From positions 1 to 63,499 of the forward strand of contig JAWCSL010000003.1 in the NCBI GenBank assembly GCA_039090665.1: 63,499 nucleotides of DNA, given 5' to 3'. The stretch comes from Candidatus Aenigmatarchaeota archaeon (lineage in GTDB: Archaea; Aenigmatarchaeota; Aenigmatarchaeia; CG10238-14; SCSR01). This document shows, in pieces, positions 6,212 to 14,757 of the stretch (its first letter is position 1; each line of letters starts with the position of its first letter). The notes beneath the pieces are model-generated. The model was given only the letters and a program-made list of their open reading frames with translations, was not told where the DNA came from and ran no database searches. The position numbers were made by a program, and so were the translations under genes.

Positions 6212-6247
6212 AATTTTACCTTTAGCTAACTACTATTTAAATCTTTA

Positions 6248-6333
6248 TGGGCCTGGAGGGATTCGAACCCTCAACCCGAGGTTTCTTCAAAAAACCGAAG
6301 CCTCGTCGGATATCCAAGTTTCCACACAGGCCC
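6248..6333 (-). tRNA. tRNA-Arg(UCG) with 12-nt intron at 37/38
   Basis: Stem CGAGG/CCTCG; CT-TCG-G, intron TTTTTTGAAGAA; BHB central helix CTTC/GAAG. Confidence 0.9.
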
Positions 6334-6422
6334 AATTAAATAAATTGCTTTTTTGTTTAAAATAAGACTAAGAAGGGAAAACCAATTTACAAAAAATATA
6401 AAAAAAGAAAAAGAAGAGGGAC

Positions 6423-7932: not shown

Positions 7933-8318
7933 CTAAACAAAATTTTAACAAACTCTGTGTAAATTTTTTATTAAAATTTTATTTAAAAGCATTTTTTATG
8001 TTTAAAATATATGATGAAAATTGTATGATAGTGAATTTAAATCGTGCAAACTATTTTTTTCTTTATATATCTTTTAAATCAACATCAGTTATATCACAAA
8101 AATTTTCTAGTTTCTCTTTTTATTTTTGTCAAATAAATCTTCCAAAGCACAACGTGCAATCAAAAATTTTAAAAAATCATGATTTCTTACACTTGAACCT
8201 AACTTAACAAAAATTTTCCTCAAGTTGAGACAGTCTTAATGGATAACTTCTATACAAAATTTTAATTATTCTTGTGCTGTAATCAATTTCTTTCACAATA
8301 GGAAACAAAAAAATTAAG

Positions 8319-8404
8319 CGCCCTCGGTGGGATTCGAACCCACGACCTACCGGTTAACAGCTTCACCCTATTCGTCGGGTGCTCTACCACTGAGCTACGA
8401 GGGC
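8319..8404 (-). tRNA. tRNA-Asn(GUU) with 14-nt non-canonical intron at 30/31
   Basis: Loop CTGTTAA, G73; removing ACGAATAGGGTGAA (8362-8375) restores a 72-nt cloverleaf; BHB central helix CACC/GGTG with 3-nt bulges. Confidence 0.9.
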
Positions 8405-11095: not shown

Positions 11096-11374
11096 ATGCA
11101 ACCTAGCTTAAAAAAAGTTAAGGCTTTTATTCTTGCTTCTTTTACTTACACACAAAAAGGTAAGTTTTTGGACCAAAAAGAAATTTTAGCACAAATAGCA
11201 AAATTCCCAGAAGTTGAAGAAGCTCACATCATAAGTGGTAATTGGGATATTTTAATAAAAGTTGCTATGAATAGTGTGGATGACATAGGAAAGTTTGTGG
11301 TTGATAAATTAAGAAAAGTTAAAGGAATAGAGAAAACAATAACTTGCATGGTTTTCCAAACTGCAAAAGAGTAA
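11096..11374 (+). CDS. Stand-alone Lrp/AsnC ligand-binding (RAM) domain
   Basis: PEVEEAHIISGNWDILIKV...VVDKLRKVKGIEKTIT; no N-terminal HTH. Confidence 0.85.
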   Translation: MQPSLKKVKAFILASFTYTQKGKFLDQKEILAQIAKFPEVEEAHIISGNWDILIKVAMNSVDDIGKFVVDKLRKVKGIEKTITCMVFQTAKE

Positions 11375-11380
11375 ATGTTT

Positions 11381-11680
11381 TCAAACCTCTTCCTCTGGAG
11401 CTTCCTCTGGAATTTCCTCTGGAATTTCTGGTGTGGGTATGTGTTTTATTATCACTATATCACCCACAGCTTGAACCATCGGGTAAGGAACTATTACTCC
11501 TTTCTTTCCACCCAAAGCTTTGCCCAAAAAACCTTCTCTTGCAGCTTCTATAAGCAAGCTTCTTATCTTGAATCTTGCTAGGTCAAGCTCAACATCCGAA
11601 ACCTTACCACAGTAAAAACCTTTTGTAGTGAAGACATCTTTGCCAAACAAATCAGCAATGTCTTTAACATTAAGTGGCAT
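11381..11680 (-). CDS. PRC-barrel domain protein (CdpB-like)
   Basis: GKDVFTTKGFYCGKVSDVELD...IVPYPMVQAVGDIVII; acidic PEE-repeat tail. Confidence 0.85.
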   Translation of the reverse strand: MPLNVKDIADLFGKDVFTTKGFYCGKVSDVELDLARFKIRSLLIEAAREGFLGKALGGKKGVIVPYPMVQAVGDIVIIKHIPTPEIPEEIPEEAPEEEV

Positions 11681-11748
11681 TTTTACATCCTCCTAATAAA
11701 TTGTGGGTTTTAATATTAAATAAACTTTTGTGTATAAATTATTTTAGT

Positions 11749-11844
11749 GCCTAGGTGGCCGAATCTGGTTAAGGCGCCAGTCTGCTAAAGTTGTAGAGAG
11801 CTGGTGGTCGTAAGACCGTGTGGGTTCAAATCCCACCCTAGGCG
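11749..11844 (+). tRNA. tRNA-Ser(GCU) with 11-nt intron at 37/38
   Basis: Stem CCAGT/GCTGG; CT-GCT-A, intron AAGTTGTAGAG; BHB helix CTGC/GTAG; long variable arm. Confidence 0.9.
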
Positions 11845-11935
11845 TATTTTTTCTTTGTTTATTGAGAAAGAAATTTCCCCCTTCTTAATCAAATTTTTAA
11901 TTTTCCCCACCCTTAAAACTATTTTAGTGAGTTCA

Positions 11936-12445
11936 ATGAACTATTTGATGATTATCTTCCTTTTCTTTATTTTGTACTTCTGGATAAGGTTGATTTTTGA
12001 CGAGGCAATTTATGTTCCTTTACCAACTTCAACTATAAGAAAAATGCTCAAGCTTGCTAAAGTCAGCAAAAAAGATTTGCTCTATGATTTGGGAGCAGGA
12101 GACGGAAGAGTTGTGATAATAGCTGCGAAAGAATTTGGTTGTAAAGCTGTTGGCATAGAAAGAAGTGCTTTGCTTGCTGCAATTTGCAGGTGGAGAATTA
12201 AAAGAGCAGGCTTGCAAGATAAAATCAAGATCATAGAGAAAAATTACTTTGATGTTAACTTGAGTAAGGCTACAGTGGTAACAGCTTACCTATCAAAAAA
12301 GCAAAATGAAAAGCTTGTGCCAAAGTTGAAGAAAGAATTGAAGAAAGGAACAAGAGTAGTTTCTGCATCTCATATTTTTCCTGGACTGAAAGAAGTGAAA
12401 AGAATAAAAACAGGGCACTTTTATTCTTATTTATACAAGATTTAA
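11936..12445 (+). CDS. Class I SAM methyltransferase with N-terminal TM anchor (FAM173-like)
   Basis: IYVPLP, YDLGAGDGRVV, ATVVTAYL, GTRVVS. Start moved to ATG 11936 because the track start overlaps tRNA-Ser. Confidence 0.82.
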   Translation: MNYLMIIFLFFILYFWIRLIFDEAIYVPLPTSTIRKMLKLAKVSKKDLLYDLGAGDGRVVIIAAKEFGCKAVGIERSALLAAICRWRIKRAGLQDKIKIIEKNYFDVNLSKATVVTAYLSKKQNEKLVPKLKKELKKGTRVVSASHIFPGLKEVKRIKTGHFYSYLYKI

Positions 12446-12479
12446 TTTTTTTATAGAGAGTCAACAATTTTTTATTAAA

Positions 12480-12550
12480 GGGTCCGTAGTCTAACGGTAG
12501 GACGTCACCCTGACACGGTGAAGGAAGGAGTTCGACTCTCCTCGGACCCA
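12480..12550 (+). tRNA. tRNA-Val(GAC)
   Basis: GGGTCCG/CGGACCC, stem TCACC/GGTGA, loop CTGACAC. Confidence 0.94.
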
Positions 12551-12655
12551 CTTACAAAAACAGCAAAGATAAATTTTACGATTTTACAGAAGAATGGTTA
12601 ATTTCTAGAAATTTTTGTTCTATCAGTAACACTCAAAAGGTTATCTATTTTTAAA

Positions 12656-12742
12656 AGCCCCAGGCGGGATTTGCACCCGCGACCTCATGCTTACCACGCT
12701 TGCGCAATTCTTATGCGCTCTAGCTAGCTGAGCTACTGGGGC
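12656..12742 (-). tRNA. tRNA-Thr(GGU) with 13-nt intron at 29/30 and atypical elbow
   Basis: GCCCCAG/CTGGGGC, U73; removing AAGAATTGCGCAA (12700-12712) restores CATGC/GCATG; loop GTGGTAA; T-loop TGCAAAT. Confidence 0.8.
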
Positions 12743-12887
12743 ACGAACATTTTATTTCTTGTACTCAAAAAACACTTGTTTTTTCAATATAAAAAATTTG
12801 GTTTGGCCAATATTTCAAAACCATTAGTCAAAAATATCATTTCAACTGAAGAAAAAAATTTATAAAAAACTTAGTAACCATTTCTTT

Positions 12888-13502
12888 ATGTCAAAAGGAG
12901 TTTTCATAGTTCTTGAAGGCATAGATGGCAGTGGAAAAAGCTCACAATCAAAACTTCTCTTTGATTTCCTCCAGAAAAACAAAATCCCAGCAATTTTAAC
13001 TCATGAACCAACAGATGGTGAGATTGGTTACTTACTTACAAATAAATACCTTAAAGAAGTTGATTTACCTTTGGTTGATGCTTTTCTCTTCGCTGCTGAT
13101 AGGGAAGAACATTTGAAGAAAACTGTTATTCCAGCTTTAGAGCAGGGCAAAATTGTTATTTCAGATCGCTATTATCATTCAACTCTAGCTTACCAACAAG
13201 CCCAAGGTCTCGAGTTAAAATTTCTTCTTGAATTGAACAAAAAGTTCATCAAACCCGATTTAACCATAATAATTGATCTTGAGCCTGAGATTGCTGTTGA
13301 GAGAATAGAAAAAGATAAGAACAGGAAAATGGAAGAGAGGAAGAAATTTGAGAAGGTTGAATTCTTGAAGAAAGTGAGGAAGAATTTTCTTGAGCTGAAA
13401 GAGATCTTGAAAGATGAGAGAATTGTTGTGATAGATGGCAACAAGACGAAAGAAGAGGTTTTTGAAGCTGTGTTGAGTGAGGTCAAAAAGATTTTATTCT
13501 AA
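12888..13502 (+). CDS. tmk: Thymidylate kinase
   Basis: EGIDGSGKSS, THEPT, ISDRYYHSTLAYQ, KPDLTI. Confidence 0.95.
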   Translation: MSKGVFIVLEGIDGSGKSSQSKLLFDFLQKNKIPAILTHEPTDGEIGYLLTNKYLKEVDLPLVDAFLFAADREEHLKKTVIPALEQGKIVISDRYYHSTLAYQQAQGLELKFLLELNKKFIKPDLTIIIDLEPEIAVERIEKDKNRKMEERKKFEKVEFLKKVRKNFLELKEILKDERIVVIDGNKTKEEVFEAVLSEVKKILF

Positions 13503-14757
13503 AATCCAAATTAATTTTATGGTTGACGAGCTTTTTTTGAAAATAGTTCTTTCTCTTGGGATAGGAGCTTTGGTTGGAATAGAAAGGGAGCAAAGAGCAA
13601 AAGGTGAAGTTGCCCAAGGAATAAGAACTTTCATGCTCGCTTCCTTTTTGGGCTTCCTTTCCACACACTTTTCTTTTCTCTTTCAGTCTTTCTTACCTTT
13701 CTACATAGCTTTTTGTACAGCAGGAGTTTTGACAGCTTTGGCTTACTTGAGAAAAACGAGGGAAAAACATGTCGGTCAAACAACCAACTTTGCTTTTTTA
13801 ATCACATTCTTACTAGGAGTTTTGCTCTATTTTGACACTTTTCCATACTACCTTTCAATCTCTCTTGCAATCTTGCTGACTTTCATCCTTGCTTCAAAAG
13901 AGATTCTCCACACTTTTTCAAAACACTTGACTAAAAAAGAAATTTGGAACGCTGTTTTCTTTGCAGTACTTTCTTTTGTGATCTTACCAGTTCTCCCGAA
14001 TCACACTATAGATCCTTTCAATTCAATAAATCCATTCTTGATTTGGTCAAGTGTCGTCATAGTCCTTTCTCTCAGCTTTTTAGCTTACATCTTGATGAAA
14101 ATCTTTGGACCAAAGAAAGGAATAATTCTTTCGGGAATTTTAGGTGGAATTGTCTCTTCAGTTGCAGTAACCATATCAATGGCAAGTGATGCCAAGAAGA
14201 ACAAGAAAATCTTCTATTCTGCAGTTTTTTCAATTGCTCTTGCTTCTTCCACCATGTTCTTGAGGATGTTTTTTGTCTCGATAATCTTTAACTACAGCCT
14301 TGCTTTCCAAATTTTCGCTCCTCTCGCAATGTTAAGTGTCTTAGGATATTTTTTAACACTAGGTTTCTTGGATAAGATCAAGAAAGAGAAACCTAAACTC
14401 ATCTTGAGATCTCCCCTTGATTTAAAGGTTGCTTTGAGATTTGGCATATTTTTCACGATAGCTATGATAGTGATAAACATAGCCAAAAACTATTTCAGCG
14501 AGACTGTTGTTTACCCCATAGCTTTTATCACAGGCTTGGTAGATGTTGATGCAATTGTCATCTCCCTTTCATCTCTTGCTCTAACTTCAATCTCATCAAC
14601 AGTTGCTATAAAAGGAATAATCCTTGCAGCCATTTCAAACACTTTCTCCAAATGGCTTTTGGCTCTATGGCTAGGCAATAGAAAAGTTGCCTTGGATGTT
14701 GGTAAAGTTTTCTCAGTTTTGATTTTAGTGGGAGCAGCAATTCTATTTTTCATTTAA
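13477..14757 (+). CDS. MgtC/SapB + DUF4010-type membrane protein (probable start ~13519)
   Basis: GALVGIERE, GIRTF, GGIVSSVAVT, GLVDVDAI motifs; many TM helices. Confidence 0.85.
   Translation: MRSKRFYSKIQINFMVDELFLKIVLSLGIGALVGIEREQRAKGEVAQGIRTFMLASFLGFLSTHFSFLFQSFLPFYIAFCTAGVLTALAYLRKTREKHVGQTTNFAFLITFLLGVLLYFDTFPYYLSISLAILLTFILASKEILHTFSKHLTKKEIWNAVFFAVLSFVILPVLPNHTIDPFNSINPFLIWSSVVIVLSLSFLAYILMKIFGPKKGIILSGILGGIVSSVAVTISMASDAKKNKKIFYSAVFSIALASSTMFLRMFFVSIIFNYSLAFQIFAPLAMLSVLGYFLTLGFLDKIKKEKPKLILRSPLDLKVALRFGIFFTIAMIVINIAKNYFSETVVYPIAFITGLVDVDAIVISLSSLALTSISSTVAIKGIILAAISNTFSKWLLALWLGNRKVALDVGKVFSVLILVGAAILFFI

Follow-up and report, generated by a model that had tools for sequence, protein, structure and literature searches.

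A tRNA-Thr(GGU) gene with a candidate A18-G55 elbow in a family of Aenigmatarchaeota

In the normal tRNA elbow, G18 is stacked between purine 57 and A58 and touches pseudouridine 55 (Psi55), with the pair G19-C56 forming the outer face, and G18 and Psi55 are described as virtually universal in tRNA in reviews (PMC7912444, PMC4810234). The contact between positions 18 and 55 is reported to matter for folding and for ribosomal translocation, and E. coli 18-55 mutants are cited in one of these (PMC4810234). In the deep mutational scan of the yeast suppressor SUP4oc, no single change at G18-U55 is tolerated and G18A is rescued only by U20G (PMC4117946). The same tertiary pair, with its evident relevance to function in both organisms, is the subject of this report, but here it carries a natural double change, A18 with G55. 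The change is found in a tRNA-Thr(GGU) gene on the minus strand of the window (the whole stretch of DNA analyzed, 63,499 nt, corresponding to contig C9), which also encodes the archaeal RNase P RNA (722-977) and many intron-bearing tRNAs. The window belongs to a Candidatus Aenigmatarchaeota assembly of 620,606 bp in 15 contigs, with a G+C content of ~34% and an estimated completeness of 90.6%. The question raised by this locus is whether a tRNA that has lost both partners of so conserved a contact is a gene in decay or a working tRNA with a different elbow.

The tRNA-Thr(GGU) gene, its intron and its codons

The gene scores 45.7 bits against the Rfam tRNA model RF00005 (gathering score 29), covering model positions 1-71, and its features are collected in Table 1. 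Parsed by hand, it has a 7-bp acceptor stem, the dinucleotide UA, a D stem GCUC/GAGC and G26, an anticodon stem in which CAU and GC, separated by the intron, face GCAUG, and a 7-nt anticodon loop G32-U33-GGU-A37-A38, followed by the variable loop AGGUC, the T stem GCGGG/CCCGC, the T loop and U73. All stems are completely paired once the intron is removed. At the elbow, A18-G19 replaces G18-G19 and G55 replaces U55, leaving the tRNA without the canonical combination of G18 and U55 or Psi55. The rest of the elbow is intact, as G19, C56, U54, A58, G53 and C61 are all present, and the G19-C56, reverse-Hoogsteen U54-A58 and G53-C61 pairs are probably kept. Both U73 and an acceptor stem beginning with GCC are common to the Thr(CGU) and Thr(UGU) genes of this genome, indicating a Thr-type body, and the entire acceptor stem is that of the Thr(CGU) gene. 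The hand parse agrees with the original prediction for this locus, which had described a D loop without GG (A18-G19), a TGCAAAT T loop (G55), intact stems and U73. A different register of the D loop, in which the G would be G18 and the next base position 19, was considered and rejected: C56 is kept and requires G19, and type II D loops show U, not C, after the G.

Table 1. Coordinates of the tRNA-Thr(GGU) gene and its parts in the window
Feature	Positions	Strand	Details
tRNA-Thr(GGU) gene	12656..12742	-	87 nt including intron, 74 nt spliced; CCA not encoded; from Rfam, hand parse and orthologues
5' exon, tRNA positions 1-29	12713..12742	-	acceptor 5' strand, D arm, G26, C27-A28-U29
D loop AGCUAGCUA	12721..12729	-	9 nt, without GG; A18 = 12725, G19 = 12724
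Splicing helix, exon strand G24-C25-G26-C27	12715..12718	-	5' splice site 2 nt downstream
Intron	12700..12712	-	13 nt, between positions 29 and 30; relaxed bulge-helix-bulge (BHL) type
Splicing helix, intron strand GCGC	12702..12705	-	intron bases 8-11, then AA, then 3' splice site
3' exon, positions 30-73	12656..12699	-	G30-C31, anticodon loop, variable loop, T arm, acceptor 3' strand
Anticodon GGU	12695-12693	-	G32 = 12697; U73 = 12656
T loop UGCAAAU	12669..12675	-	U54, G55, C56, A57, A58; G55 = 12674
U run	12653..12655	-	directly 3' of U73 (4 U including U73); likely transcription stop, judged from sequence
A/T-rich TATA-like box	12787..12795	-	putative promoter, from sequence only; ~45-53 nt upstream of mature 5' end

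The Rfam score is at the low end of those for the tRNAs of this genome owing to the intron and the two non-consensus bases, and the intron at 29/30 keeps ARAGORN from making a call at this locus. The genome yields 38 Rfam tRNA hits, of which this gene alone has no GG in the D loop and alone has G55. Its D loop, AGCUAGCUA, is unchanged in three congeners (G002, G004 and G007), and both D and T loops are identical in the three independent congener assemblies. Position 32 of tRNA is normally a pyrimidine. The G32 that had been singled out together with the elbow bases is indeed present, but it is not conserved: the 95%-identical genes of the three congeners have A32, and A, G, U or C can be found at this position across the family, which makes G32 a substitution at the species level. 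Many Thr(GGU) genes of the family, of either elbow type, have a purine (A or G) at position 32 facing A38.

Archaeal RNA polymerase terminates at oligo-T, and the A/T-rich box upstream of the gene and the U run following U73 are consistent with an expressed archaeal gene. Other features of the neighborhood include a tRNA-Val(GAC) at 12480-12550 and plus-strand genes for a DOT1-like class I methyltransferase (11804-12445), a thymidylate kinase (12888-13502) and an MgtC/DUF4010 membrane protein (13477-14757).

Introns of the bulge-helix-bulge type have a 4-bp central helix and are cut 2 nt 3' of each helix strand, within 3-nt bulges that lie between outer helices. We placed the splice sites by this helix rule together with the anticodon stem that results, and cutting out 12712-12700 yields a perfect 5-bp stem. 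Both sites then lie exactly 2 nt 3' of the strands of a GCGC/GCGC helix, which is the bulge-helix-bulge spacing, and the helix is included in the minimum free energy fold of the precursor (-40.6 kcal/mol, z = -3.2). The intron at 29/30 with its GCGC/GCGC helix, as originally predicted, agrees with both parse and precursor fold. The motif is a relaxed one, in that the 5' site is located in a 7-nt hairpin loop and not in a 3-nt bulge, the 3' site falls in an internal loop or bulge, and two D-stem bases are taken into the splicing helix. The intron lies at the same site in G007, G015, G011, G012, G022 and G076, and the changes within the helix are compensatory or wobble; for example, in G015 both strands are changed to give GCAC/GUGC, and several other genomes have G-U or U-G pairs. 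A single EndA gene was detected in the genome (G000, C12:23832-24110), of the simple kind and encoding 188 aa. We predict that EndA removes the 13-nt intron at this relaxed bulge-helix-loop motif and that CCA is then added.

Bulge-helix-bulge introns at non-canonical tRNA positions have been described in Crenarchaeota and DPANN. In most respects the gene resembles a canonical archaeal intron-containing tRNA-Thr, with which it shares the cloverleaf, U73, the GGU anticodon, the G19-C56, U54-A58 and G53-C61 pairs, a short intron in the anticodon stem and the presence of an EndA gene in the genome. It differs from such a tRNA in having A18 for G18 and G55 for U55 (Psi55), and in an intron whose motif is relaxed, with the 5' site in a loop and a helix that overlaps the D stem. 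Orthologues of this one gene within the family have introns at no fewer than six positions, with up to two per gene, indicating rapid turnover of intron sites in the family. These sites include the D loop (L033, L142), the 3' strand of the acceptor stem (L141), position 37/38 (L335, L020) and the 3' side of the anticodon stem (L011, L034, L038, L041, L066). Elsewhere in the window, two minus-strand genes at 6247-6334 and 8318-8404 are reported by ARAGORN as tRNA-??? with 4-nt or 2-nt anticodons, while Rfam calls both tRNA; here non-canonical introns mislead ARAGORN. On contig C15 of the same genome, at ~1700-1760, there is a T arm with an acceptor 3' strand and an A discriminator and no recognizable 5' half upstream, which may be the 3' half of a split tRNA or part of a tRNA, missed by Rfam, whose intron is large.

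The normal GG and UUC are found in both of the other threonine isoacceptors, Thr(UGU) (C12:30006-30100) and Thr(CGU) (C12:15936-16020). Searches of the 90.6%-complete assembly with an anticodon stem-loop motif, with a 3'-half motif and by BLAST, for which the queries were 47 family Thr(GGU) exon sequences, found no second tRNA with a GGU anticodon. In 348 long open reading frames, ACU and ACC account for 2842 of 5861 Thr codons (48%). By standard wobble, and within an assembly of this completeness, the gene at 12656-12742 is the only reader of ACU and ACC, and it is apparently indispensable. The presence of a further tRNA-Thr(GGU), together with a lack of expression or splicing of this one, had been named at the outset as the finding that would speak against a functional elbow; no further copy is found in the assembly, and nearly half of the demand for threonine falls on ACY codons. 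The genome also contains a Pus10 gene. Despite this, position 55 of the predicted tRNA, being a G, certainly cannot be pseudouridylated.

Covariation of positions 18 and 55

If A18 and G55 form a functional unit, the two bases would be expected to change together. We examined Thr(GGU) genes in 69 genomes of the family, representing 27 genera. A pattern for G55 Thr(GGU) genes matched 17 genomes, and a search with the A18 D arm returned the same genes and those of two further genomes (G059 and G082), for a total of 19 genomes from 7 genera. All 19 have A18-G19. A twentieth A18 gene, in an eighth genus (G047), has its T loop beyond the end of the contig. The U55 pattern matched 31 genomes, and all 29 of the in-family U55 genes that were parsed have G18. 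No mixed state, be it A18 with U55 or G18 with G55, is seen among the parsed Thr(GGU) genes of the family, and no genome matches both the G55 and the U55 search pattern. Among the G55 genes, the T, acceptor and anticodon stems vary by compensatory changes. Position 57 is A or G in Thr(GGU) genes of the family, and we saw no other position specifically linked to it; G26 and A44, for instance, often accompany G55 but occur in U55 genes as well.

The swap is restricted to the Thr(GGU) isoacceptor, both in the four genomes that we examined across their tRNA complement and in the family-wide A18 D-arm search, which returned no other tRNA type. In the four genomes, all other tRNA hits with a parsable T arm have U55 and GG (37 in G000, 26 in G012, 40 in G016 and 23 in G083), and across G012, G016 and G083 the only tRNAs with G55 are the Thr(GGU) of G016 and that of G083. 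It is also largely a property of the family, as the G55 Thr(GGU) pattern matched 17 of 69 genomes within it compared to 1 of 301 outside it in a sample of 370 genomes from the phylum, and the single outside match is probably due to chance. G083 carries a second Thr(GGU) gene (L192:338-445) of the U55/GG type, located on contig C16 of only 4328 bp. In this copy, the T loop is interrupted by an intron of ~33 nt and the acceptor stem contains a C5-A68 mismatch; it could come from a contaminating strain or be a copy in the process of being lost. In the latter case, it would show a way across the two-step change.

In order to look beyond the family, we searched for an A18 D arm (a GCUC stem with the 8-nt loop AGUYAGUA) in ~186,000 species genomes and obtained at least 120 loci, from which 92 tRNA genes were parsed. 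Among the matches listed, position 55 is G in 85 of these 92 genes, U in 6 and C in 1, and the sample, having been selected on A18, is no measure of how rare the pair is. The rule that A18 goes with G55 holds over both prokaryotic domains. For example, among the matches listed, A18 tRNA-Phe genes are carried by many Patescibacteria, by Mycoplasmatota and by a Pacearchaeota MAG, tRNA-Thr(CGU) genes by Planctomycetota and Omnitrophota, and tRNA-Thr(GGU) genes by Peregrinibacteria. The 85 G55 T loops among the matches listed begin with U54-G55-C56 (48), C54-G55-C56 (27), G54-G55-C56 (8) or A54-G55-C56 (2). Some of these loops are also altered at the 54-58 pair. Among the matches listed, A18 occurs together with C54-G55-C56-R57-C58 in tRNA-Met of CPR bacteria and in tRNA-Phe-like genes of Bacillota, and with G54-G55-C56-R57-G58 in actinomycete tRNA-like genes with Arg anticodons, C1-G72 and G73. 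The loci with changed 54-58 are from Patescibacteria (L193, L201, L223, L242, L248), Bacillota (L215, L219, L226, L230, L233) and Actinomycetota (L196, L197, L206). A virus-borne origin of the archaeal gene was considered and rejected, as a scan of IMG/VR gave only two unrelated bacteriophage tRNA arrays.

Recurrence and allele exchange at one locus

On a species tree inferred from 14 ribosomal proteins (L3-L5 cluster, 2265 columns; IQ-TREE in quick mode, LG+G4), the G55 genes lie in separate clades and 8 state changes are needed to account for them. All 8 phylogenetically independent contrasts are concordant for positions 18 and 55 (sign test p = 0.008), although these species-tree contrasts overstate the number of independent mutational origins, because tRNA alleles have been exchanged between genera. 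The tRNA-Thr(GGU) locus is syntenic over most genera, located beside the same gene of ~230 aa. At this locus, the U55 genome G006 is the fully supported sister of the G55 genome G007, and their Thr(GGU) genes lie between the same flanking genes. Nevertheless, the G006 allele has a different acceptor stem, anticodon stem and intron site from that of G007 and is nearly identical to that found in G075, a genome from a different genus. The comparison of these loci took in positions 11156-14242 of the window. Thr(GGU) alleles therefore appear to have been exchanged by replacement in place.

Given this exchange, we compared the genes directly by exon distances computed with columns 18 and 55 omitted. 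The g1 type shows 7-10 differences to its nearest U55 genes compared to 11-13 to the other G55 types. The genes of g5, g6 and g33 constitute one type, with 2-7 mutual differences, even though these genera lie in different parts of the species tree, which suggests either transfer or an old polymorphism. The G016 gene, on the other hand, departs from the U55 genes of its sister clade at only 4 sites and from every other G55 gene at no fewer than 10, suggesting that the swap arose locally. The gene shared by G083 and G082 is a further distinct type. Taken together, at least three and perhaps four origins of the swap in the family are likely. The original prediction had taken the joint change of positions 18 and 55 as a sign of a functional alternative elbow and not of decay, and had proposed a comparison of orthologues as a check. 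The 19 of 19 and 29 of 29 covariation supports that proposal, and the orthologues show an absence of intermediates, compensated stems, three or more gene types and contrasts that are concordant throughout.

A proposed elbow and its alternatives

We consider it probable, at roughly 85%, that 12656-12742 encodes the working and sole tRNA-Thr(GGU) of this ~0.62-Mb DPANN archaeon, and that an A18-G55 elbow keeps its L shape and allows it to read ACU and ACC. Points that weigh against this reading are the intolerance of single changes at G18-U55 in yeast SUP4, the relaxed splicing motif overlapping the D stem alongside a lone EndA gene of the simple kind, the completeness of 90.6%, which leaves some room for another Thr(GGU) gene, and the second Thr(GGU) gene of G083. 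A structural precedent is available in the T-loops of the L1 stalk, RNase P and T-box stem I, in which Lehmann and colleagues describe a conserved G at position 2 (PMC3664808). In these double T-loop modules, an adenine from outside the loop fills the gap between positions 4 and 5 and forms a trans Watson-Crick/sugar-edge pair with the position-2 G (PMC3664808). The archaeal sequence matches this UG..A arrangement, with U54, G55 and A58 corresponding to U1, G2 and A5, and with A18 in place of the intercalating G18; we propose the same pairing for A18 and G55. There is one difference of context, in that double T-loop modules bind tRNA elbows, whereas here the motif would be inside the tRNA elbow and the adenine would come from the D loop.

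Under our proposal, the intron-bearing precursor would be spliced by EndA, CCA would be added and the tRNA would be charged with threonine. During folding, A18 would intercalate between A57 and A58 and pair with the G at the second position of the T loop, so that the inner layer changes from G18-Psi55 to A18-G55, and the outer layer of G19-C56 together with the reverse-Hoogsteen U54-A58 pair would be kept. A general T-loop solution would in this way substitute for the tRNA-specific G-Psi contact. Because A18-G55 would use the UG..A arrangement and the outer layer is kept, the L shape would be preserved, the outer face presented to the ribosome, RNase P and other partners would be unaltered, and the tRNA would decode ACU and ACC. 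A full-text literature search found no description of an A18-G55 elbow pair in tRNA, with a mention in older papers being possible.

A natural G55 is documented in the staphylococcal non-proteogenic tRNA-Gly species (Ia/Ib of S. epidermidis, NP1-3 of S. aureus), which have UGC/UGU in the T loop where UUC is usual and no pseudouridine 55, and which function in cell-wall synthesis (PMC7826273). By this analogy, the archaeal tRNA might have been diverted from translation. However, the staphylococcal tRNAs are extra copies that coexist with proteogenic isoacceptors, whereas the archaeal gene is the only ACY decoder found in a 90.6%-complete assembly and serves codons that make up 48% of those for threonine. 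Only G083 has a second Thr(GGU), which was missed by the search patterns and lies on a small contig. We therefore regard a role outside translation as very improbable. Even less credible is that the gene is decaying or that two of its positions were misassembled, as the low-end Rfam score and the lack of an ARAGORN call might seem to suggest. The D and T loops are identical in three independent congener assemblies, the swap occurs in 19 genomes with stems that are intact and compensated, which led us to reject the gene as a pseudogene, and the intron helix is preserved through compensatory changes.

Accepting a working tRNA with an A18-G55 elbow leaves the matter of why the swap recurs. The sober reading is drift followed by compensation in small populations, made easier by second copies that were short-lived or by tRNA-Thr(UGU) taking over part of the decoding. 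A more adventurous reading, which we think rather unlikely, is that the swap was selected because A18-G55 allows Thr(GGU) to evade, or to be targeted by, a factor recognizing the U54-U55/G18 corner, such as a T-loop modification enzyme like Pus10, a tRNA-cleaving toxin or a viral or host nuclease. Selection of this kind would account for recurrence in a single isoacceptor of a single family: the swap is found in at least three gene types yet solely in Thr(GGU), within the phylum it is restricted to a single family, and with Pus10 present the other tRNAs can acquire Psi55 but Thr(GGU) cannot. Nevertheless, we identified no candidate partner and no gene that tracks the swap, and the occurrence of the swap elsewhere in tRNA-Phe, tRNA-Met, tRNA-Pro and tRNA-Thr(CGU) fits a generic structural alternative equally well. 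Furthermore, the same pattern could result from allele exchange together with drift in small populations.

If the A18-G55 elbow forms as proposed, the corner of tRNA has at least two natural designs, and an A-G pair of the type seen in rRNA and RNase P T-loops should be present inside a tRNA, a structural prediction that can be tested. Transfer RNAs with A18 and G55 are necessarily without Psi55. For annotation, the case is a warning, as ARAGORN missed the gene and covariance scores fall. Among the matches listed, the same solution is present in many bacteria and archaea, chiefly of small-genome lineages. To these the present case adds a family of Aenigmatarchaeota, a cellular isoacceptor that is both sole and intron-bearing, a covariation test that works from both sides, and repeated origin together with allele exchange at one syntenic locus. 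Should selection prove to be the cause, the swap would make Thr(GGU) invisible, or specifically visible, to a factor acting through the U54-U55/G18 corner. A change that arose repeatedly within a single isoacceptor and family provides a natural system in which to ask what selects the swap.
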